This document shows positions 10,227 through 64,000 of a DNA stretch of 64,000 nucleotides, one piece after another. The DNA is from Kiritimatiellia bacterium (GTDB taxonomy: Bacteria; Verrucomicrobiota; Kiritimatiellia; JAAZAB01), in NCBI GenBank assembly GCA_040767085.1, contig JAXGPF010000004.1:96001-160000 (forward strand), read 5' to 3'. The translations under genes were made by a program, and so were the position numbers. A model generated the notes under the pieces. That model saw only the letters and a program-made list of their open reading frames with translations, did no database searches and was not told the origin of the DNA. The first letter of the stretch is position 1; each line of letters starts with the position of its first letter.

Positions 10227-10429
10227 ACTCGATCCGCCTCTCTCGAAAAGTCCGTGTTGATTCCTTTCACAAACCCCCTGAGGTCCGAAATGTCGCGTTC
10301 CGGGATAAGCTCCACGCGTCCTGAATACTCAATCACCTGCATCCTCTGTCCGGGGCGAAGTTGCAGGTTATCTCGTACCGGACGGGGGATAACGATCTGA
10401 TATTTGGGTGATACCGTCACTGCATGCAT
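10223..10429 (-). CDS. AbrB/MazE/SpoVT-family antitoxin
   Basis: VTVSPKYQIVIPRPVR motif; overlaps the vapC start by 4 nt. Confidence 0.9.
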   Translation of the reverse strand: MHAVTVSPKYQIVIPRPVRDNLQLRPGQRMQVIEYSGRVELIPERDISDLRGFVKGINTDFSREADRV

Positions 10430-10500
10430 GATGAATCCTCCATCGATCTGTTTTCGTAGTACAATATTCCAATCGATGGGTCGCTGTCAATTATCTTTAA

Positions 10501-10634
10501 GCCCAACGGCGAAATGTTAAGCGCAACTGACGGAGACCGCAAACTCGGCTTCCGATCGAACGGCAATTTTACAAATCAGGCTTTTGAAATCCGCGTCGCC
10601 CTGGTTGAGAATCGCCTGGATTTGTTTGTTGGGC
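10501..10634 (-). other. Composite/degenerate attC-like site
   Basis: On the minus strand GCCCAAC (10634-10628) ... GTTGGGC (10507-10501). 10501-10568 is a close copy of 13431-13498. Confidence 0.65.
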
Positions 10635-10932
10635 TGGTTCTTTGTCCATGCAGAGCGTCAAGAACTGCAGCCGGATTGTGTGCAGCGATGGTCAGAAGCG
10701 CTTTCGCCGGCCCCTCGGGCTGGCGTCGGCCTTGCTCCCAGTTCTGGAGGGTCCGGGTGCTGACACCAATCATGACGGCAAACTCGCCTTGCGAGACGTC
10801 GAGATGCTCACGAACGACTCGAATATCAGGGGGCTTGATCTCGTAGAACCGGCTGGGTGTTCGGCGTCCCGCCTTGATCTCTCCGGCCTCCTTGATGCTG
10901 GCGACCAACCTGGCAAACGTGTCTGCTTTCAT
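10576..10932 (-). CDS. higA: HigA/NadS-like XRE HTH antitoxin
   Basis: SQGEFAVMIGVSTRTLQNWEQGRRQPEGPA; the C-terminus reads on into the attC-like site. Confidence 0.85.
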   Translation of the reverse strand: MKADTFARLVASIKEAGEIKAGRRTPSRFYEIKPPDIRVVREHLDVSQGEFAVMIGVSTRTLQNWEQGRRQPEGPAKALLTIAAHNPAAVLDALHGQRTSPTNKSRRFSTRATRISKA

Positions 10933-11243
10933 GTTAACCACTCCTTGACCAACTCCCGGAGGAATTTTAGTTGCGCCGGCGTGAGGTCATCTTGATCTAT
11001 CTTCTTGTACGGCAAAAGCATGTAGATCGTATCCGGCATATCCCAGTAGTATATGACCCGCAGGGCACCGCGCTTGCCAATACCGGGTAGCTTCCACCGC
11101 ACCTTCCTCAATCCACCTCAGCCGCGGATGAGGTCCCCGGCATCCGGCCTGAACATCAGCGCCGTCTGCAATCTTCGGTACTCTTCATCCGGCAAGAGGC
11201 TTCTGATCTCTTTCGTGAACACGGAGGTCTCAATGAAAATCAT
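10929..11243 (-). pseudogene. higB: RelE/HigB-family toxin with premature TGA at codon 42
   Basis: MIFIETSVFTKEIRSLLPDEEYRRLQTALMFRPDAGDLIRG*GGLRKVRW...GKRGALRVIYY; stop at 11120-11118. Confidence 0.85.
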
Positions 11244-11249
11244 GGAAAT

Positions 11250-11277
11250 ATCATACGCCAATGACGTATATTGTCAA
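11250..11277 (-). promoter_or_regulatory. Sigma70 promoter of higBA with overlapping palindromic operator
   Basis: TTGACA-16 nt-TATGAT ending 6 nt before the ATG (near leaderless); ATACGtCAtTGgCGTAT dyad. Confidence 0.7.
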
Positions 11278-11302
11278 TCTCCGATTTCATCCTTTTTCTG
11301 CT

Positions 11303-11361
11303 GCCCAACGTCACTTCTATGGCGCGGCCTTCAGGCCGTCGCTTGCAGGAGCCGGTTCGGC
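11303..11361 (-). other. attC-like site (59 bp)
   Basis: GCCGAAC...GGCCTGAAGGCC central hairpin...GTTGGGC, directly after a cassette ORF. Confidence 0.78.
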
Positions 11362-11419
11362 GGTCTTCTGATCGAGGGCCTCCAGGGCGCGAGAAATCGC
11401 CTGAATCGCAAGACGGAAG

Positions 11420-12520
11420 TCAAAGCCGGCGCACGCGTTCGAGTCGCGCGATCTGTTTCTGTCGCCGCTCGCTGTTCGTCTCGTCCGATTCCTTCGACTG
11501 CGGGACAAGCGACCACGGGCATCCGGCGCCTTCCATGAGGATGTCCCCGATCTTGCCGTACTCTTCGGCGGCGGCGAGTAGACGCTCGCGGGCTTCGCCC
11601 TTGAACAACGCAGCCTTCACCTTGAGCCAGCGGGAAGCGATAGGACGATTCTGCGTGAGCACGTCGTAGCACCAACCGCTGCCCTGCATACACGCCTTCG
11701 GGTCCTTAACCTTGCCCGCCTCGACATCGCGCAGATACTGGAGCCAAAACGCGTAGGCGGCATCGCCGGAAAGATAGTGGCCTTCAATCTTATCCTTGCG
11801 GTACCACATGTCGACGGCCTGCCTCAGGGCGGCGAGCGTCAGTTTGCGTTCATCGGCGCGCTCGCTGGCCAACTTGGGCTCCAGCCAGACGACCACTCCC
11901 CAAGGCCACTTGTCCCTGCCGCCAGCGAAGCCGGCAGCCTCGTCGTACCAGAACGGTTCACCGCCCCGCTTGTGATACGGATGAACGCACCACCATCGCC
12001 TGCCCTCGTCGGCGTACCCGATGATCAGGCCCTCCTCTTCGGCGACATAGTTCACGGGAATGCCGCGGTCGAGGCTCGTCTTGATCGCGGCACAGACTTC
12101 AGCGCGGAAGGCCTTGCCTTCCCCGGCGTTCCGTTCCGTCCTCCCCGGGAACGACTCGTATATCTTGGTTCGCCAGGGAATCGCCTTGTTGCTGTTCTCG
12201 ATGCACATGTACCCGCAGCAGGGATGTCCGGCGCTGGGACAGAGTCGGTTGTCGATGCCGACACGGAACGCGAACCCGCCGTAGCACACGAGGTCATCGT
12301 ACGTCATCGTTTCGCCGACGGCCTGGAGGATTCGAGCCTGCGCTCCGTGAACACTCGATCGACAGTCGGCGGGGCTGAAGCCCTTCACGCCATCGAGCCA
12401 CACCTTGCCGTCCTCTCGCCTGACCTTGGATGCCATGTTGTTACCTCTGTTCGTGTCGGCGGCAACGGCCACGCCTGCCGCAATCACCGCACAAAGCCAT
12501 GCGACCACGCCCTGTTTCAC
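11420..12520 (-). CDS. Secreted hypothetical protein (cassette)
   Basis: 366 aa with a signal-peptide-like N-terminus; bounded by attC-like sites. Confidence 0.75.
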   Translation of the reverse strand: MKQGVVAWLCAVIAAGVAVAADTNRGNNMASKVRREDGKVWLDGVKGFSPADCRSSVHGAQARILQAVGETMTYDDLVCYGGFAFRVGIDNRLCPSAGHPCCGYMCIENSNKAIPWRTKIYESFPGRTERNAGEGKAFRAEVCAAIKTSLDRGIPVNYVAEEEGLIIGYADEGRRWWCVHPYHKRGGEPFWYDEAAGFAGGRDKWPWGVVVWLEPKLASERADERKLTLAALRQAVDMWYRKDKIEGHYLSGDAAYAFWLQYLRDVEAGKVKDPKACMQGSGWCYDVLTQNRPIASRWLKVKAALFKGEARERLLAAAEEYGKIGDILMEGAGCPWSLVPQSKESDETNSERRQKQIARLERVRRL

Positions 12521-12531
12521 TCGATTCTCCT

Positions 12532-12590
12532 GCCCAACGTTACGGCTCTGTGGTCCCGTGTAGCGGGTACGCTGAAGCCGGAAGTTTTTA
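12532..12590 (-). other. attC-like site (59 bp, degenerate R'')
   Basis: TAAAAAC...CGGCTTCAG...ACCCG/CGGG...CAGAGCCG...GTTGGGC imperfect palindrome, right after a stop codon. Confidence 0.72.
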
Positions 12591-12830
12591 CTATTCCATC
12601 CCCAGCCTAGCGATAATGTCTTTTGCTTGTTCTGTTTGATTTTCAGGAACCATAACTTTCATGCTTCCTGCGCCTATACTCATTCCACCCATTTGGACGG
12701 AAGAAAATATTTCGTTTTCGACGTAGCAAGTGATATTCGCTTGCTCCAACGCCGCGCGAATCATTCCAGCTTGGACAGGATTGCGTGGCTGATAAACAGC
12801 TATAAACTTGGTATTATCTTGTTCGTTCAT
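12591..12830 (-). CDS. DUF2007-like small protein (cassette)
   Basis: QAGMIRAALEQANITCYVENE...KVMVPENQTEQAKDII pattern; low GC. Confidence 0.75.
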   Translation of the reverse strand: MNEQDNTKFIAVYQPRNPVQAGMIRAALEQANITCYVENEIFSSVQMGGMSIGAGSMKVMVPENQTEQAKDIIARLGME

Positions 12831-12840
12831 TTATTTTCAC

Positions 12841-12926
12841 ATCCAACGTCAGCGTTAATGCTGAGGCGCGCCTGGTGCGCCGCTAACGGGTGGCTGTAAG
12901 CCGTACCGTTCAGCGGCTGGTTAGGG
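12841..12926 (-). other. attC-like site
   Basis: CCCTAAC (overlapping the stop of the upstream gene)...GTTGGAT; the left half resembles the site at 61807-61865. Confidence 0.78.
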
Positions 12927-13430
12927 ATTACTCTTCTTTGCTTGTCGTATCCAGTGAGGGATGGAAATCAACGATGCGACAGCGATTCCCACTCCCAAAG
13001 AGATCGTGCAGTAGAATGGTATGAAGATGAACGCGATGGCCGACGTGGATGACACTGGTCCATCAGTGTACAACGGCAGCCAGACCGAAACATGTGCGGG
13101 CACCATGAGTGCCAGTATGCCGACAAGACCGCAGACACAGAAGAAACAGAAACGAGCTCTCGTGAGCGTGCTCGTGAGAGCACGCAAGATGACAGAAAGA
13201 ATGCCAAAAGGAATCAGTCCAATGATGGCAAGAAGGAACAGATTGTGCCCCTCTGCAAACTGTCGGTGGGCAATATCTCGCAATGACTCGACTGGCGCTA
13301 TGCTGCCGACTGTGATTTCGAGGAGGAAGATCACAAGAGAGGGGGTAACCAAGCCAACCACGACGATGAGGTTCAGGCACGTCCGCCTGAACTTATCGAA
13401 CTGTCCATCTGTTTCGTTCATTCTCTGCAT
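12921..13430 (-). CDS. Four-TM membrane protein (cassette)
   Basis: Hydrophobic segments; cassette starts GTTAGGG and ends with the complementary CCCTAAC. Confidence 0.75.
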   Translation of the reverse strand: MQRMNETDGQFDKFRRTCLNLIVVVGLVTPSLVIFLLEITVGSIAPVESLRDIAHRQFAEGHNLFLLAIIGLIPFGILSVILRALTSTLTRARFCFFCVCGLVGILALMVPAHVSVWLPLYTDGPVSSTSAIAFIFIPFYCTISLGVGIAVASLISIPHWIRQAKKSNP

Positions 13431-13520
13431 CCCTAACGGCGAACTGTTGAGCGCAACTGACGGAGACAGGAAGCTCGGCTTCCGGGCGAACGGCAGTTAC
13501 GCTCGGCCGGTCGGTTCGGA
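13431..13520 (-). other. Head recombination site of array 1 (attC- or attI-like)
   Basis: TCCGAAC...GAGCGTAACTG / CAGTTGCGCTC inverted repeat...GTTAGGG. Confidence 0.7.
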
Positions 13521-13660
13521 ATTTCCCCAAGCTTATCCTGGCCGGACTTTCCATCTATGCCGGATGATAGGCGATTCCCCGATTAATACGCAATATTTTT
13601 CTGTTTTCCTTGGTTGACCGAGCGGAAAGTACAAGAATCCTTGACTGACACCTTGACCCT
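13509..13660 (-). promoter_or_regulatory. Conserved ~155-bp array head element with promoter (copy 1)
   Basis: Reverse complement closely matches 61884-62041; contains TTGCGT-18 nt-TATCAT pointing into the cassettes. Confidence 0.72.
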
Positions 13661-13785
13661 TCGTGATCTTCGTGCCCTTCGTGGTTAATCAGCAAAGGAA
13701 CAAAGGGGCAGAGGGGCAGAATCTGGGTCTTTCGCGTTCCTTGTGTTCTTTTGCGGTTAATTCATTCCCTTCGTGGCCTTCCATG
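13657..13785. repeat. 9-bp-period short repeats (CTTCGTG / TTCGCG-TTGTG-TTGCGGTT)
   Basis: cttcgtgatcttcgtgcccttcgtggttaa and ttcgcgttccttgtgttcttttgcggttaa. Confidence 0.6.
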
Positions 13786-15199: not shown

Positions 15200-15610
15200 C
15201 GCATCCTATCCCGGACACCGCCCTTGTAGTGGCGCAACTGTGTTGCGCTTCCCGTCCCGGACGCCACTGTAGCGGCGCAACTGTGTTGCGCATCCCATTC
15301 AGAACGCCGAACGCAGTTCGGCCACTACATCCGGAAATTTCCCATCATAGCAAGCGCGGCGGCATAATTTGCTCACGGCTGCGTCATTCCAGGAAAAGAC
15401 GGCTCGGTACGGAGACATCGCCCTACCGGGAGAATGCTCTGTAGGTAGGGCGACGTTTCCGACGGAGCCGCGGTCGGACGGCTCGCCCGGAGGTCTCGCC
15501 CCACCATTTCATAAGCATTTGCCATGGATATAGCCCTTGTAGCGGCGCAACTGTGTTGCGCATTCTATCCCGGATGCCGAACGCAGTTCGGCCGCTACAT
15601 CCGGAAGTTT
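15200..15610. repeat. Cluster of GTAG-type REP elements (two families, BIME/REPIN-like)
   Basis: GTAG(T/C)GGCGCAACTGTGTTGCGC at 15226, 15269 and 15539 with inverted partners; GGTAGGGCGACGTTTCCGACGGAGCCG family at about 15400-15506. Confidence 0.8.
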
Positions 15611-57387: not shown

Positions 57388-59559
57388 ATGTCACCCATGA
57401 CAAATGCACCTTCCCCCACCCCAGCCGCCGCCGGCTTGGAGGAAAAATTCCTGAATCTGCTGGCCGACCCCGCCGCCTCCGCGGCGGCGCTGGCCGAGGT
57501 TTTACAAGCCCTGGCCGGCGCCGCCGGACCGGCCAAGGCCGATGCCAGCGCCGAGTTATGGCAGGGAGAATTGGCCTCCCGCCGGCAGACCGATGACCTG
57601 CTGGACCTGCTGCGCCTGCGGGCGGGGTGGCGGGACGACGGCCATTTCAAACGCGCTGCCGGCCCCTGGCTGGAAGATTATTTCCGCACCGACACCCGAG
57701 AGCTGACGCTGACCCGCAATGCCGGCTGGAACGATCCCGGCGTCTCGGCCGTTGAAGCGCTCCGGCGCCTGGCAGTGCTGCGCGGACTGCATCCCGGCGC
57801 CGCTTGCTACGAGAAGACCTGGGGCGCCGGGCGTATCCGCGAAATCAATGAATACCACCAGCAGGTTGAGATCGATTTTGAGCGCAAGCCAGGCCACCGC
57901 CTCGCGCTGGCCCACGCCGGCGCCAATCTCATGCTGCTGCCGCCGGAAAACATTCTGGCGCTGCGCCAGGCTGATCCGGCGGAGGCGCGGCGGCGGATGG
58001 AGGAATCCCCGGGAGCCGTCGCCCGGGAAGTCCTGCTGACTTTCGGGCCGTTTACTCCCGTCCGCCTGCAGGAGTGGATGACGGCGCACCTGCTTTCGGA
58101 AGCCGCCTGGAAAAAATTCTGGGATGCCGCCCGTAAAAATCTCAAGGAAGACCCGCTGGTCACCCTGCCGGCGCGCCGGAACGAGCCGATTGTCATCCAC
58201 GACCGCGAGCAGACCGCCGACCCGCAATGGCAGGCGGACTTCCGCCGCGAAAACGATCCCGATAAAATCCTGCAGACGGCGGATGAAATCCGCGCCCGCC
58301 CGGGGCCGCTGCCGCCGAATGTGCAAAACCTGCTCGCGGAGCGGCTGGGCTTTGTCCTGTGCTCCGCCGGCAAGCGCGAACAGGCCCGGCGCGCGCGCGC
58401 CTGGCTGGCGCTGGAGGAGATGGAAGCCGCGCCGCCAGGCGCGGACCTGGCAGCCGCGGCGGCGGAGTTGCTGGCCCCGGAAGCCTTCGCCGCGGCCCTG
58501 GCCGCACTGCCCGTCCGCAGCCAGGCGCCGTTCTGCCGCTGCCTGCTCCGCCGGCAGCCGGAATTGTTCGGGCAGATTCTGCCGGAAATACTGCGCGCGG
58601 CGGACGCCGGCGCCTTACATGAAATCTGGCGCGCCCTGGCAGACGCAGGCGCACAAGAGCACGCGGCGGAGCTGCTGCGCGAATTGCTGCAGGCGCCGGA
58701 GCCCCCCTTGGAACTGGTCGCCTGGCTGTGCCGCAATGCGGCCATCCGCGACCAATTCAACCTGGCCGCGCCTGACCGGCTGGCCTTCATGGTCCTGAAC
58801 CTGCTCGAAAACCCGGCCATGGAAGGCGTGGGCCGCACGCGCGCCCGCAACCAACTGCGCGACTCCCTCTCCGACCCGGACTGGCTGGCCGCGGCGCTGC
58901 AGACGATGGGGGAGCAGCAGCGCCGCGATTTTGCGCTGCGCCTGCAAACCGCCAACCTGGGCTCCGACATCAACAACGCCGCGCTCCTGCTGCTGGCCGT
59001 CAAGCTGCGGCCGGAATTGGAGCAGGCGCTGCAGGGAGCCGCCCCGGCGCCGGCCGCGCCGGCGCGCCTGACTTCCCGGCATTCCTACCACGCGCGGCAG
59101 GCGCAACTGCACAAATTGATTACGGAGGAAATCCCCGCCAACAGCCGCGAAATCGGCGTCGCCCGCGGCTACGGCGACCTCCGGGAAAATTTCGAATACA
59201 AAGCGGCCAAGGATACCCAGGGGTTGCTGATGCGCCGGCGGATGGAATGGGAGCAAATGCTGGCGGAGGTCCGCGCCACCGATTTCGCCAATTTCCCGAC
59301 TGATCGCGCCGGGCCCGGCGCCTGCGTGACGCTGCGCTACGACGATGGCCGCGAAGAAAAATACCATATCCTGGGCGAATGGGACCATGACGAACAATTG
59401 GCCATCATCTCCAACCGCTCCCGCCTGGCGGAAATTCTGCGGGGCCGGCGCGCGGGGGAACGGGTGGAAGTCCCGGATGGCAGCGGCCAAATGCGCGGCG
59501 CCCTGGTTTCGGATGTCGGCGGCTTGAGCGAAGCCGTGCGCGCCTGGATCAATGCCTAA
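57388..59559 (+). CDS. greA: Long GreA-type transcription elongation factor with N-terminal extension
   Basis: C-terminal ARGYGDLRENFEYKAAK and YHILGEWD motifs; 723 aa, as in chlamydial/PVC long GreA. Confidence 0.85.
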   Translation: MSPMTNAPSPTPAAAGLEEKFLNLLADPAASAAALAEVLQALAGAAGPAKADASAELWQGELASRRQTDDLLDLLRLRAGWRDDGHFKRAAGPWLEDYFRTDTRELTLTRNAGWNDPGVSAVEALRRLAVLRGLHPGAACYEKTWGAGRIREINEYHQQVEIDFERKPGHRLALAHAGANLMLLPPENILALRQADPAEARRRMEESPGAVAREVLLTFGPFTPVRLQEWMTAHLLSEAAWKKFWDAARKNLKEDPLVTLPARRNEPIVIHDREQTADPQWQADFRRENDPDKILQTADEIRARPGPLPPNVQNLLAERLGFVLCSAGKREQARRARAWLALEEMEAAPPGADLAAAAAELLAPEAFAAALAALPVRSQAPFCRCLLRRQPELFGQILPEILRAADAGALHEIWRALADAGAQEHAAELLRELLQAPEPPLELVAWLCRNAAIRDQFNLAAPDRLAFMVLNLLENPAMEGVGRTRARNQLRDSLSDPDWLAAALQTMGEQQRRDFALRLQTANLGSDINNAALLLLAVKLRPELEQALQGAAPAPAAPARLTSRHSYHARQAQLHKLITEEIPANSREIGVARGYGDLRENFEYKAAKDTQGLLMRRRMEWEQMLAEVRATDFANFPTDRAGPGACVTLRYDDGREEKYHILGEWDHDEQLAIISNRSRLAEILRGRRAGERVEVPDGSGQMRGALVSDVGGLSEAVRAWINA

Positions 59560-59660
59560 TAATATCCCGCGGGACACAGCCATACTGGTTTCGCGCCGGT
59601 CTCCCCAAAATCAATCTGCGCCGCGGCGTGGGGGCGTGGGGTCGGACCGTAGGGGGCGTG

Positions 59661-60090
59661 GGGTCGGACCGCGGCAAGATGTTATTTGACAGGTGGATAG
59701 CCCGATATTATGGCAAAAAAACACTCTTAGCGGTGTTTTTTGGCGGGCTTTTTGTGTTATAAGCACTTATATTCGTATCATGCCAAGAAAAATCGGTATT
59801 TCTTGTGTGGTCATTTATGGCACTTGACCCATAGATGTCACAACCGTGTTTTTTTTGCTGAAATTCGGCAAGGACCGTGGTGGCCAAAAAATTATGAACC
59901 GGCGGAAATTGGCGATAGAGCAAGAGCCGATTGCTGGTGAATCGGAAGCGTATATGCTGAGGGAGCAGCCCATTGGCTATGGGAATACTTAATGCTTATT
60001 TTGGTAATGAAAAAACGGCGCTAAGGGCCTTAAAAGCAGCTTAAATATCTTTAAAGCATTGGTGTTTAGCATATTGCCGAGGTCCGACCC
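59661..60090 (+). mobile_element. Internally deleted RAYT/Y1 (HUH) transposase-like element with 21-bp inverted termini
   Basis: GGGTCGGACCGCGGCAAGATG (59661-59681) vs CATATTGCCGAGGTCCGACCC (60070-60090), 19/21 match; encloses transposase remnants. Confidence 0.7.
59780..59990 (+). pseudogene. Frameshifted RAYT-like transposase remnant (N- and C-terminal pieces only)
   Basis: MPRK/NRYFLCGHLWHLTHRCHNR/FLLKFGKDR across two homopolymer frameshifts, then AYMLREQPIGYG; no HUH motif left. Confidence 0.62.
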
Positions 60091-60144
60091 TCTGGCCCAC
60101 CCTCTGGCCACAGGTTAGCCTGATAATACTGTTCGAACAACACC

Positions 60145-61470
60145 ATGAGAACACAGCAAGCAGTGCCATACGTCACAGAACCTGGACGCCGGACTCCAAT
60201 CGCGGGCGAAGTCGACGTGGTCGTTGCCGGTGGTGGCCCGGCTGGGATCGCGGCAGCGTTGGCGGCTGCGCGCAGCGGTGCCGGGGTGAAGATGCTTGAA
60301 ACGCGCGGGTGCCTTGGCGGCGTCTGGACGGCAGGACTTCTCACCTGGATGTTCGAAATGGACCAACCCGGCATTCCCCTGGAGATCACGCAACGGCTCG
60401 ATGCGCTGGGAGCACGAAGGGGCGTTCTTCCTTCCATGTACTCGTACGATCCCGAAACCATGAAGCAACTGCTTGAGAACATGTGTTCCGAGGCGGGTAT
60501 CGGGATTCAACTCCACACCCGCGTTGCGGGTGTTATCGCCGATGGCGAGCGACTGTCCGCGGTGCTGACGGAGTCGAAGTCGGGCCGACAGGCGTGGCGC
60601 GCGGCGGTCTTTGTGGATGCCACCGGGGATGGTGACCTGGCCGCGCTTGCCGGCTGCACGTATGACATGGGAAGGGCCCCCTCCGGCGAATGCCAACCCA
60701 TGACGTACATGGCATTGGCAACGGTTCCGGATGCCGAGCGGCTCTCTCCCTTCATCTCCGGCGGAGATCTTTCGCATCACCTGGAGGCCGTCGGCCGGTT
60801 TCTCGCAGAAATCCGGAGGGCCGGAATAGAACCTTCCTATGCTCGGCCGACGCTCTTCCAGATTCGCGGCGAACTTTTGGCCGTCATGGTGAACCACGAG
60901 TATGGCGTCTCGGCGACCGATGCCGACGCAATCACGCGGGCGACGATCCGCGGCAGGGAGGAAGTGAACCGGATTGTCCACGGTCTGCGCAAACTAGGCG
61001 GCGCATGGTCCGACATGCATCTCGTGGCGACGTGCGAGCATATCGGCGTTCGCGAAGGGCGCCGCATCCACGGCCTCTACACCGTCACGGAGGATGACTT
61101 GGCCGCCGGTCGGAGGCAGGTGGACGCCGTCTGCCGCGTCAGGTTCGGAGTCGACGTCCACTCCACGAACCCCGCCGCCGGCAAGGGACAGGAGAGGTCT
61201 CCTTTCAAGATGAAGCCGTACGATGTTCCCATGAGGGCTCTCGTCGCGAAGGAAGTGTCCAATCTCCTTCTCGCCGGGCGCTGCATCAGCGGGGATTTCA
61301 TCGCCCACTCGAGTTATCGCGTCACGGGGACAGCGGCTGCCACTGGTCAGGCAGCGGGAGCGGCGGCGGCGCTGTCTGCACGAATGGGCAAGTCACCGGC
61401 GGAGTTGCCGTGGGCCGATATCTCGGAGCTGCTCCAGAAGACGGTGCGCTTCGAACCAGGGCGTCCATGA
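60145..61470 (+). CDS. FAD-dependent oxidoreductase (cassette)
   Basis: VVVAGGGPAG, FVDATGDGD and LLLAGRCIS motifs; cassette starts GTTCGAA (60131) and ends with the complementary TTCGAAC (61450). Confidence 0.9.
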   Translation: MRTQQAVPYVTEPGRRTPIAGEVDVVVAGGGPAGIAAALAAARSGAGVKMLETRGCLGGVWTAGLLTWMFEMDQPGIPLEITQRLDALGARRGVLPSMYSYDPETMKQLLENMCSEAGIGIQLHTRVAGVIADGERLSAVLTESKSGRQAWRAAVFVDATGDGDLAALAGCTYDMGRAPSGECQPMTYMALATVPDAERLSPFISGGDLSHHLEAVGRFLAEIRRAGIEPSYARPTLFQIRGELLAVMVNHEYGVSATDADAITRATIRGREEVNRIVHGLRKLGGAWSDMHLVATCEHIGVREGRRIHGLYTVTEDDLAAGRRQVDAVCRVRFGVDVHSTNPAAGKGQERSPFKMKPYDVPMRALVAKEVSNLLLAGRCISGDFIAHSSYRVTGTAAATGQAAGAAAALSARMGKSPAELPWADISELLQKTVRFEPGRP

Positions 61471-61823
61471 TACCTTCGACCCGCGGACGGATGTTTTCGT
61501 ATGACAGGGATAGTTGCCACCGAAACCACCGCCGATATACGCTCTGCAGCTACCATTTCAACGAGGGTCACGAAGGGGGTTGGAAGAGATGCCCGAAATG
61601 CCGGAGCGAATTTGAACCCGAAATGGTCGCGTGGTATGGCACCAATGAATACAACTTTGAGAAGATGCCCGATCCTCCACCATACGATCCGACGAAATGC
61701 TCGCGCTGTGGTGTCATCATCAACCTCGGCCCCGATGGCTACACCAGATCAGGCGATGAGTATTGGTGCAAATCATGTGCAGCGGAAGAGAGGAAGAAAA
61801 ATATGCGTCGAACCAGTGTCTGA
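61467..61823 (+). pseudogene. Probable 5'-truncated cassette gene encoding a Cys/His-rich zinc-binding domain
   Basis: CHRNH...C..H...H, CPKC, CSRC and CKSC; follows an incomplete attC and ends in an attC. Confidence 0.55.
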
Positions 61824-61865
61824 ACGGTACGGCGGAAGCCGCCCCCCGTTAGGCGCACGTTGGTC
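61807..61865 (+). other. attC-like site (59 bp)
   Basis: GTCGAAC...CTGAACGG...GGCGGAAGCC...CCGTTAGG...GTTGGTC. Confidence 0.78.
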
Positions 61866-61883
61866 CAGGACGTAAAGGTGGTA

Positions 61884-62041
61884 AAGGTGTCAGTCAAGGT
61901 GTCGGTTAAGAATTCTTGTAGTTTCCGCCCGGTCAACCAAGAAACATAAAAACACATTGCGTTTTAATCCAGGAATCGCCTATCATCCGGCATAGATTGA
62001 AATTCCGGCCGAGATTACCTTGGAGAATTTCCGAACCGACC
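61884..62041 (+). promoter_or_regulatory. Conserved array head element with promoter (copy 2)
   Basis: Matches the reverse complement of 13509-13660; contains TTGCGT-18 nt-TATCAT. Confidence 0.72.
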
Positions 62042-62071
62042 TGCCACAAGAAGAGAGAAAGGGATATCGAC

Positions 62072-62422
62072 ATGAGTGGTTCTCGAAAACGGTTTATCGT
62101 GCCAGTCTCTGTAATTCTACTGGGCGTCACCTGGTTGCTGAACGTACTGAAGATCCTTCCAGGCGTGGACTGGATATGGACGGCAGGACTCGCTGCCGTA
62201 GGCATTCTGACCTTGGCGCTGGGTGGCATCAATAAACTGACCGCCGTGATCGGGCCATTCTTGATGGTCGCCTCGGTCTCCTCAATTCTCCGGCAGACAG
62301 GAAGACTGGAGATTGATCGGGAGGTCCCGATCTTGACCATCGTCCTGGGATGTCTTCTTCTACTCGTGCAGCTACTGAACATCCCATTGCCAGAATTGCT
62401 CAGGCCAGAAGATGAGAAATGA
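62072..62422 (+). CDS. Small four-TM membrane protein (cassette)
   Basis: Hydrophobic 116-aa ORF with purine-rich RBS; followed by an attC-like site. Confidence 0.75.
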   Translation: MSGSRKRFIVPVSVILLGVTWLLNVLKILPGVDWIWTAGLAAVGILTLALGGINKLTAVIGPFLMVASVSSILRQTGRLEIDREVPILTIVLGCLLLLVQLLNIPLPELLRPEDEK

Positions 62423-62426
62423 TTCG

Positions 62427-62564
62427 GCAGAATACGGCGTCGCACGGTACGCTCGCAAACTCGTCCCCCATGAACGCATATTGGTTTTTAAGAGAAGACG
62501 GCACAACCAGCCGTCCCACCCTATCGCCGTGAAGCCAGGCTCAGGCTGAACGGCAACGTTGGTC
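62427..62564 (+). other. Two back-to-back attC-like sites
   Basis: Degenerate GCAGAAT...ATTGGTT (62427-62486), then GCACAAC...GTTGGTC (62501-62564). Confidence 0.65.
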
Positions 62565-62575
62565 CAGGAGAAGAC

Positions 62576-63304
62576 ATGACGAAGCATATTGGGATTGTCG
62601 CATGCAGCGCTGAAGGGGCCGCCTTGTGCTATCGGACTCTGTGCAAAGAAGCGCCCGCACTTATGGGCGAGCACATGCATCCTGAAGTCTCGATGCACAC
62701 CCATCCTCTTGGCGAATACATGGTTCATATCCGATCGGGCAACTGGCCCAAAGTGGCAGAACTGATACTGTCATCCGTGACCAAACTAGCGGAAATCGGC
62801 GCCAAGTTTGCCGTTTGTCCGGACAACACGATCCATCAGGCTTTTCACATCGTTGTGGCACAGTCGCCCATCCCCTGGCTCCACATTGCCGGGGCGGTCG
62901 CCGCCGAGGCAAGCGCCCGGAGGCTCAAGACGCTTGCCGTAACCGGAACGAAGTACCTGATGACGGGCCCCGTATATCCAGACACACTGGCCGAGTTCGG
63001 GCTGACCGTCCAGATCCCGGACGAACGTGACCGAGAACGGATTGATACCATCATTTTTAAGGAACTCGTCAACGGGCTGTTCACCGAGGAATCCCGGATG
63101 TACTTCAACACCGTCGTCCAGAGGATGAAGGATCGCGGATGCGATGCGGTAGTGTTGGGGTGCACGGAAATCCCACTACTCGTTGACCCGAACGACTGTC
63201 CATTGCCGATACTCGATTCGACCCGCCTTCTGGCTCGTGCCGCGCTGCGGGAAGCAATGAAAGAGGACCAACCATCTGGTTCAGGCGACGCTTTGCAGCG
63301 CTGA
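62576..63304 (+). CDS. Aspartate/glutamate racemase family protein (cassette)
   Basis: CPDNTIH and VVLGCTEIP catalytic Cys motifs; cassette starts GTTGGTC and ends with the complementary GACCAAC (63266). Confidence 0.9.
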   Translation: MTKHIGIVACSAEGAALCYRTLCKEAPALMGEHMHPEVSMHTHPLGEYMVHIRSGNWPKVAELILSSVTKLAEIGAKFAVCPDNTIHQAFHIVVAQSPIPWLHIAGAVAAEASARRLKTLAVTGTKYLMTGPVYPDTLAEFGLTVQIPDERDRERIDTIIFKELVNGLFTEESRMYFNTVVQRMKDRGCDAVVLGCTEIPLLVDPNDCPLPILDSTRLLARAALREAMKEDQPSGSGDALQR

Positions 63305-63589
63305 CCTTCCCCCTTGATCCATCCGCTAAGAGAGTCCAACAGAGAGCATCATAGACCCGTTTTTTCGGTTGTCCGCCCCTCTTTGTGCTTCCATACCGGC
63401 CCCTTGGGAGGGAGGGGGGATCGAACTATCGCCCTCAGGCTATCGGCGACCCGTGGTCGCGGCGCCGCGGGGCGCGCCCGCCGGGTGCTTCCTGCTTGAC
63501 TTTTGGCCAGCGTTGTTTTAAAAATTCCTGCATCAGTTTAACGTAAAGCGCGCCAGCAGGCGCGTCCACAACACCAGGGGTAAAAAGGC

Positions 63590-64000
63590 ATGAACAAGAT
63601 GCATCCATACAGCAACCGGTTGATAGCGCTGGCGCTCGCCGCCGGCATGGCCAGCCTGAGCGGTTGCGCGATGTTCCGCATGAAAGTCACCGACACGGAT
63701 GTGGAGGAAATGCCCACGCTGGACGCCCGCTACGGCGCCCAGGACCTGCGCAAGTTGAGCCAGGATGTGGCCGACGAACTGGCCGCCAGCCCGTTCATCC
63801 AGGAGCAGTCCGGCAATCCCGTCATGATCATTTACGGCATCCAGCCGCGCACCACCACCTTCGTGGACACCCAGGCGCTGACCGACCGGATTAAAACCAC
63901 GCTCCTGCGCAACTCGCGTGTGCAATTCGTCAACGAAGCCCGGCGCGACCAATTGCTCAAGGAACAGGGCTACCAGGCCGCGCAGGCCACCGACGAGTCC
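63590..64000 (+). CDS. LpoB/YcfM-like lipoprotein (runs off right edge)
   Basis: Manual translation: lipobox LSGC, DLRKLSQDVADEL, VDTQALTDRIKTTL and VQFVN. Confidence 0.7.
   Translation, partial: MNKMHPYSNRLIALALAAGMASLSGCAMFRMKVTDTDVEEMPTLDARYGAQDLRKLSQDVADELAASPFIQEQSGNPVMIIYGIQPRTTTFVDTQALTDRIKTTLLRNSRVQFVNEARRDQLLKEQGYQAAQATDES

Follow-up and report, generated by a model that had tools for sequence, protein, structure and literature searches.

A probable decayed chromosomal integron with a RAYT-like element at its attI remnant in a Kiritimatiellia genome

Results

A cassette island next to a greA-like gene

The DNA analysed here, referred to as the window, is a stretch of 64,000 nt from the genome of a Kiritimatiellia bacterium (G000:C23:96001-160000). 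It contains an integrase-less array of gene cassettes with attC recombination sites, located beside a truncated mobile element related to the repetitive extragenic palindromic (REP)-associated tyrosine transposases (RAYTs). G000 denotes the studied genome, G001-G004 are same-genus genomes, and G016 belongs to another genus. Homology to the four same-genus genomes ended at 59559, the stop codon of a long greA-like gene, and restarted at 63476-63487 (63589 in G004). The segment 59560..63476, between the greA-like gene and the upstream region of lpoB, was therefore delimited as an island, and its features are all given on the plus strand. Its G+C content falls to 0.42-0.57 in parts, compared with about 0.61 for the genome. 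A BLAST search of the island against the genome recovered, beyond the mobile element, only two repeats, namely a 150-bp repeat and the end of an IS3-family insertion sequence (IS). An Rfam search of 59400-63700 at E values up to 1 gave 0 matches. The greA contigs of two same-genus genomes end less than 400 bp from the gene, and G004 carries other genes after greA; contig ends this close to the gene suggest a greA-adjacent site that, in this genus, is rich in repeats or variable.

Cassettes, attC sites and junctions

Four cassette open reading frames (ORFs) in one orientation were found at 60145-61470, 61491-61823, 62072-62422 and 62576-63304, in agreement with an earlier sequence-only reading of this DNA, which had reported a run of co-oriented cassettes after a lone GTTCGAA half-site. 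The first ORF (60145..61470) encodes an FAD-dependent oxidoreductase of 441 aa (PF12831, E 1.8e-100). The second (61491..61823) encodes a cysteine-rich protein of 110 aa that appears zinc-ribbon-like by eye, and the third (62072..62422) a predicted membrane protein of 116 aa, both without a Pfam or NCBIfam match. The fourth (62576..63304) encodes a 242-aa member of the Asp/Glu racemase family (PF01177, E 4.7e-31; TIGR00035, 124.5 bits against a cut-off of 93.1), with its stop codon supplied by the end of the IS.

Two whole attC sites were identified. attC-A (61807..61865; R'' GTCGAAC, R' GTTGGTC) was the top hairpin candidate of the region, and attC-B (62501..62564; R'' GCACAAC, R' GTTGGTC) could be aligned, over its length, with the attC belonging to cassette 3 of the intact G003 integron. 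Three further sites are degraded. The site at 62430..62487 is homologous to a cassette attC on contig C24 (alignment A7, 78% mean column identity) and appears dead, with AAC changed to AAT in R'' and GTT to ATT in R'. A vestige at 61448..61460 retains the R'' side only (TCGAACCAG) and aligns to the 5' end of attC-A; it formed no hairpin (z +0.92) and matched neither of the covariance models R1 and R2. A putative last attC at 63266..63298 would consist of a 5' part (R'' GACCAAC and inner stem) whose R' side is lost. This is the weakest of the calls, based on an inverted match to the R' region of attC-B and on alignment A6.

The attC architecture, with R''/R' boxes, spacer and L''/L' stem, is present and matches that of sites in intact integrons. 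Since folding energy was no better than that of shuffled sequences, the sites are identified here by their architecture and homology and not on thermodynamic grounds. A covariance model built from attC-A and one site on contig C27 alone detected sites in the integron arrays of G003 (L135, 34.3 bits, E 1e-6) and G002 (L134, 21.8 bits, E 0.0016), on the expected strand. The array thus corresponds to a cluster of attC sites lacking integron-integrases (CALIN, at least two attC in the same orientation and no intI nearby), with two whole and three degraded sites as called here rather than by IntegronFinder.

attC sites were searched with cmsearch on chosen loci, and BLAST-short with 19 attC seeds added few new sites. 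A genome-wide hairpin scan, which gave 616 candidate sites, was noisy and confounded by REP sequences of the type GCCGAAC..GTTCGGC, and was dropped as a source for the attC catalogue. The idea that the attC sites of the window and C27 are themselves derivatives of these REPs, with which they have GCCGAAC/GTTCGGC boxes in common, was ruled out by their inner hairpins of 45-60 nt, their position directly after ORFs and their matches in intact integrons.

Two further repeats lie in the array. A promoter-like module of 150 bp (61893..62045), with a sigma-70-like hexamer pair recognised by eye, has two other copies that are 85% identical, at 13509-13657 of the window (minus strand) and at C2:219388-219537. 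An attC follows both of these copies and is missing at 62045. The module was not found in 40 relatives, had no Rfam match and showed no HUH features, contrary to its earlier description as a GGTGTC-ended HUH element. The far end of the array carries a stump of about 105 bp (63299..63403) with 94-97% identity to the ends of three full IS copies (C11:12309, C2:41387 and C27:262665), and this stump takes the place of the R' side of the last attC. The transposase of the C2 copy matched rve, rve_3 and HTH_21, and the IS was therefore assigned to the IS3 family.

These features account for the ragged junctions. Among the four cuts proposed previously, those near 61480, 62041 and 63305 correspond to the vestige at 61448, the missing attC at 62045 and the IS3-family stump starting at 63299, whereas the fourth, near 61870, is no cut: attC-A is whole. 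None of the ragged junctions involves an HUH terminus. The claim that they do not look like products of the integron integrase was not sustained, as they are explained by the IS3-family stump, one lost attC and mutated attC sites.

A deletion derivative of a RAYT-like element

Ahead of the cassettes lies a non-autonomous, internally deleted copy (59661..60090) of a Y1/HUH RAYT-like element of about 975 bp, resembling a MITE (miniature inverted-repeat transposable element) and recognised from repeats, BLAST, Pfam and tblastn. A repeat search placed its arms at 59661-59684 and 60067-60090, as 24-nt sequences with 88% complementarity and 382 nt between them. The previously described length of 430 bp was recovered, with arms of 24 nt rather than 21 bp. 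The arms are not a chance pairing, because the same element recurs on C27 and C18: BLAST located six of its pieces on contig C27 and another where C18 ends, at 85-94% identity.

Two remnants of the element gene were located by tblastn and DNA identity, a 5' remnant from 59781 and a 3' remnant at 59885-59989. What is left of the gene in the window copy is its 5' part together with the final ~35 codons, corresponding to residues 212-245/246 at 86-88% identity; the copy is therefore a non-autonomous deletion derivative. Both tips are stuttered. At the left tip (59630..59671), a 20-nt unit occurs twice at 22-nt spacing, and at the right tip (60087..60109) the sequence and repeat search revealed CCCTCTGGCC twice, spanning the tip and its flank.

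The full-length copy on C27 (L001 5883-6855) contains a 246-aa ORF that matches Pfam Y1_Tnp (PF01797) with an E value of 2e-11 and 44.5 bits, above the 23-bit cut-off. The sequence-only reading of the window copy as holding only N- and C-terminal remnants of a RAYT-like transposase was thereby borne out, including the expected Y1_Tnp homology. Residues H60 and H62 of the HUH motif and Y120 are invariant across six homologues. Y1_Tnp was the only transposase domain matched, and the Y2-type HUH transposase that is the hallmark of ISCR/IS91 was not found.

RAYTs are defined as single-copy genes accompanied by a genome-wide population of REPs or REP doublets forming hairpins (REPINs). Among NCBIfam models, the 246-aa protein scored best against NF047646 (REP-associated tyrosine transposase), with 69 bits and thus under the 80-bit equivalog cut-off. 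Its closest solved structure was E. coli TnpA-REP 4ER8 (E 0.019), in a PDB sequence search that returned marginal matches only. The likeness to RAYT/TnpA-REP proteins (4ER8; available text of PMC8266576) lies in these best matches, in the HUH and tyrosine motifs, and in a gene placed between inverted copies of a short conserved sequence. The element protein differs by about 100 extra C-terminal residues, besides its score below the equivalog cut-off, and the element differs from RAYTs in being multi-copy with deletion derivatives, horizontally spread and without a REP population of its terminus. Indeed, no genome-wide REP population of the terminus was found, since its 11-mer is as rare as a reversed control (9 genomic occurrences versus 8), and the abundant REPs of the genome (GCCGAAC..GTTCGGC with GTAG) differ from it in sequence. 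In the available text of PMC8266576, integrons appear only as an analogy for hairpin recognition. The element also has a Y1 HUH transposase in common with the IS200/IS605 family, which is described in the available text of PMC7923331 as lacking terminal inverted repeats and carrying subterminal hairpins instead; the 24-nt terminal inverted repeats of the element set it apart.

The family is widespread. A search of a species-representative collection yielded 610 matched stretches from many phyla, 596 of which encode a relative of the 246-aa protein. The GGGTCGGACC core, or a close variant, was present at both ends in 35 of the 85 family loci examined, again across many phyla. A full copy with 86% identity was found in the other genus (G016), flanked by ordinary genes. 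No close homologue of the 246-aa protein was found in G001-G004, where the best matches were about 28-34% identical or absent. Stuttering, in the form of tandem copies of terminal bases plus flank, was seen in 10 of 35 family members (loci L043-L122; two of the positive rows are the same locus) and in none of 350 control windows. Stuttered tips may record repeated cleavage and rejoining by the element enzyme.

An attI stump and further promoter-attI modules

The GTTCGAA at 60131 lies 41 nt past the right arm of the element. It is preceded by ...AGGTTAGCCTGATAATACT and aligns to the sequence before the first cassette in the G002:C43 integron, whose intI scores 350 bits against the TIGR02249 cut-off of 265, and in a G003 remnant. 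In three intact integrons of the genus, the first cassette is likewise headed by ...AATAATACT directly before GTT, and in the intact G003 and G002:C38 integrons an ...AATA(A/C/T)TA(C/T)T junction before GTT stands at the start of the array. From this alignment with attI of intact integrons, the half-site therefore represents the last ~26 nt of attI, a stump at 60112..60137 that ends in ...GATAATACT followed by GTTCGAA. The half-site is thus present as first noted, although it is not lone but part of this stump, which is homologous to same-genus attI. The right tip of the element is 3 bp from the stump. As to the parts of a complete integron, ~26 nt of attI are left, and an adjacent intI and the cassette promoter (Pc) are both missing from this locus. 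In other modules, Pc comprises a TTGACA-17-TATAAA part, recognised by eye; here this part is replaced by the HUH element.

Alignment also revealed at least six further promoter-attI-like modules of ~150 bp in the studied genome, at C2:218900(+), C22:605630(-), C22:127975(-), C22:119431(-), C24:9271(-) and C26:87896(+). They carry TTGACA-17-TATAAA, end in ...AATAATACT before GTT and are followed by cassettes, with no integrase. Model R2 detected attC sites 3' of four other attI modules in the genome, in the correct orientation. Four to five promoter-attI modules share one 5' boundary (GCATAAAGCC).

Integrase genes in the genome and its relatives

No sequence in the genome exceeded the TIGR02249 cut-off for the integron integrase, in accordance with the earlier description of the array as integrase-less. 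The best match was a fragment of 101 bits located 148 kb from the array, at C23:307113-307349 (L003 1440-1806, ~307050-307420); nothing else in the genome resembles an integron integrase. Inspected by eye, the fragment has the appearance of an intI pseudogene with an internal deletion, an N-terminal motif being joined directly to the C-terminal catalytic part. Among 41 related genomes, 16 contain intI above the cut-off, including two of the four in the genus (G002 and G003).

Element boundaries near integron sites

The element occupies four loci in the genome, and at three of them its boundaries lie 1-7 bp from attI or attC. Besides the window copy, these include a left-end fragment on C24 with the first 21-24 codons, which adjoins the 5' boundary of an attI module, and four pieces within a cassette array on C27, with one piece following an attC at a distance of 7 bp. 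The C18 copy lies between ordinary genes, near no catalogued site. The catalogue comprises 34 sites, and the DNA within 200 bp of any of them amounts to 0.38% of the genome, so that the naive probability of at least three of four loci is ~2e-7. The true probability is larger, and still small, because the catalogue is incomplete, more than one end per locus was tested and the loci are not independent.

A related MITE, of the type found in G003, occurred in three copies in the 41 genomes searched, and all three (from two same-genus genomes) are located in arrays. One follows the last attC by 3 nt, another stands ~95 nt past an attI remnant, and the third separates a toxin-antitoxin-like ORF from its attC. 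Element copies are co-oriented with the cassettes at 5/5 loci. Their flanks differ, which indicates that the copies moved independently and not within one cassette. In G003 (G003:C4:6484-20500; L135/L156), an intact integron with intI, attI and five cassettes lies between two such MITEs, which are in direct repeat and 99% identical. One is located ~280 bp past the 3' end of intI, and the other follows the last attC at 3 nt. Immediately upstream of the first copy there is a second attI remnant, which has no integrase.

Of 35 elements from outside the genus, two had an attC-like hairpin within 200 nt, each apparently a false positive, where ~1.6 are expected by chance. At 12 further loci, among them loci from five other genera of the class, model R2 gave no match with an E value under 0.75, and only two weak matches to tyrosine recombinases came from the 5-kb surroundings of 85 family loci. 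The enrichment of termini near attC predicted by the sequence-only reading therefore holds within the genome and for the MITEs of the genus, and is at background level beyond it. Among the papers listed in literature searches, no description of a RAYT-like family linked to integron sites came to light.

Other arrays and repeats in the window and genome

A second integrase-less array is present on the minus strand at 10400-13690 of the window, headed by the copy of the 150-bp repeat at 13509-13657. It contains attC-like sequences at 11303-11361 and, with a degraded R', at 12870-12926, further attC-like sequences recognised by eye at ~10500-10570, 12535-12590 and 13430-13500, and a toxin-antitoxin-like pair. 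The sequence-only reading had overlooked this array, as well as the dead attC at 62430-62487 and the stuttered tips of the element. REP-like clusters, consisting of a GTAG-type motif and the 17-nt palindrome GCCGAAC-NNN-GTTCGGC with a GCGCAAC..GTTGCGC variant, are found at 15232-15600 of the window and at C4:62323, C9:47269, C22:553507, C22:560597 and C23:260103. Their arms match some attC R''/R' boxes and mimic attC in simple scans. In G002:C162 and G001:C174 (L021/L022), a greA-like gene with a short C-terminal extension is followed by REP-like GTTCGG repeats. A perfect hairpin repeat, CTTAAAC...GTTTAAG, of 52-63 nt was seen at C23:82683-82734, C4:12306, C5:125206, C22:53664, C26:14839, C26:19305 and C26:108430.

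Discussion

The island is probably a decayed chromosomal integron whose array was built by an integron integrase, with the HUH element as a resident and likely agent of the decay, and not as the builder. That an integron integrase built the array follows from the homology of its attI stump and attC sites to the corresponding sites of intact same-genus integrons. The integrase would have put the cassettes together through attI x attC recombination. Later, intI, the cassette promoter and all of attI except its last ~26 nt would have been deleted, leaving the HUH element precisely at the deletion endpoint. We infer that intI was lost through recombination between two copies of the element, and the arrangement in G003 is a plausible precursor for such a deletion. 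At the far end, an IS3-family insertion may have truncated the array and then itself been reduced to the 105-bp stump. With no integrase in the genome, the attC sites would have drifted, giving one with both triplets mutated, one vestige and one truncated site. This order of events is likewise our reconstruction.

Several points weigh against this account. The empty or intact site was not recovered, as greA and lpoB lie on separate contigs in all four same-genus genomes, and no intI remnant was found at the island locus. The assembly is 95% complete, and intI could sit in unassembled sequence. The attC calls come from covariance models (R1 and R2) made in this analysis and from homology instead of IntegronFinder, and single-strand folding of attC-A (z -0.87) and attC-B (z -1.43) was no better than that of shuffled sequence. 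Simple decay also leaves unaccounted for both the element boundaries at attI or attC in three of four loci and the shared 5' boundary of four to five integrase-less attI modules.

The sequence-only reading had proposed that HUH/Y1 elements collect and scatter pieces of integron arrays, so that the array would be a product of HUH activity instead of the integrase. The array does adjoin an element terminus, and the G003 integron between two direct-repeat MITEs of 99% identity could in principle form a composite unit. A similar speculation is made in the available text of PMC7923331, which means that the idea had already been voiced and was not, as had been supposed, undescribed. Nevertheless, the proposal is largely contradicted by the present data and appears highly improbable: an attI stump stands together with integrase-type attC sites homologous to those of intact, intI-bearing integrons, and the ragged junctions are otherwise explained. 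Moreover, cassettes are not joined directly to element termini at any recurring position defined by the element, and no duplicated cassette segments turned up beside other termini when the island was compared with the genome by BLAST. An integrase-driven spread of the MITEs, carried as cargo inside cassettes, would fit the copy at G001:C71, which lies within a cassette between the ORF and its attC, and the integron-rich genus. Such hitchhiking is nonetheless doubtful, because the sequence just outside the termini differs in every copy and no common carrier cassette was seen.

The association of the element with integron sites may reflect targeting, retention in dispensable DNA, or both. Under retention, the element would have no site preference and would survive mainly in dispensable, horizontally exchanged arrays. 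This can be entertained with reserve, given the unrelated IS3-family stump in the same array, the absence of a family-wide link to attC, and the IS found inside 23% of complete integrons and 12% of CALINs and beside 38% of CALINs in the available text of PMC4889954. Retention would, however, have to be very strong to act by itself, since far less than 1% of the genome consists of arrays, and two C27 copies enter the 3' ends of cassette ORFs, so that the insertions are not all neutral. Targeting, in which the element prefers to insert at or beside folded attC or attI in this genus, in the manner of IS1111-attC elements and group IIC-attC introns, and recombination between copies removes intI and reshuffles arrays, is compatible with the decay of an integron and can be put forward only tentatively. 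It would explain why boundaries lie 1-7 bp from attI/attC at three of four loci when only 0.38% of the genome is within 200 bp of a catalogued site, why all three MITEs of the G003 type lie in arrays with differing flanks, and why all five loci are co-oriented. Against it, the position relative to attC varies (after R', before R'' or replacing the site), and both the C18 copy and the 86%-identical G016 copy lie between ordinary genes. There is no family-wide link (2/35; nothing under E 0.75 at 12 loci), and the loci are few, related and not independent. In addition, nearly all non-coding DNA of an array is attC, and any tolerated insertion falls near one. A stronger version, in which a sublineage of the widespread RAYT-like family with conserved GGGGTCGGACC termini is specialised on integrons, inserting by folded attC/attI and driving, through copies in direct repeat, intI loss, reshuffling and possibly the movement of entire promoter-attI-cassette blocks, seems unlikely.

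Decay of an integron through IS activity is a route to CALINs that has been suggested before. Neighbouring IS occur at 38% of CALINs, and disruption of integrons by IS has been proposed as an origin of CALINs (PMC4889954, Cury et al. 2016, available text). The window array resembles these CALINs in its co-oriented cassettes with attC, the lack of a nearby integrase and a neighbouring IS. It differs in keeping an attI stump, in a genome with at least six more integrase-less promoter-attI modules, a combination not seen in the available text of that study. In Halorhodospira halochloris, the IS200/IS605 element ISHahl1 lies directly after the last attC of a CALIN, and integrase-free, HUH-mediated mobilisation of CALINs and a clustering of elements dependent on single-stranded DNA have been speculated on (PMC7923331, available text). 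Both cases place an HUH/Y1 element at the boundary of an integrase-less array. ISHahl1 is described there as an IS605-group element with tnpA and tnpB, subterminal hairpins and no inverted repeats, whereas the window element is of a single-gene (246-aa) type with 24-nt terminal inverted repeats, has deletion derivatives and occurs at several integron sites.

IS1111-attC elements and group IIC-attC introns are mobile elements found preferentially at attC in arrays, co-oriented with the cassettes and at a defined position within attC. They rely on other enzymes, a DEDD transposase and a retro-element, respectively. The fixed attC position of IS1111-attC elements is not kept by the RAYT-like element, which lies 3-7 nt after an attC, before it, or in place of it.

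The region is therefore read as an ordinary product of integron decay, traced junction by junction at the integrase side, at the far end and in the drift of the sites. For specialists, three leads emerge: a RAYT-like family at integron sites in one genus, the many integrase-less promoter-attI modules, and the stuttered tips. An integron-specialised sublineage, if true, would explain the at least seven integrase-less arrays headed by attI, several with one module boundary. If the association reflects targeting, an HUH enzyme would be added to the few elements able to recognise folded attC DNA.

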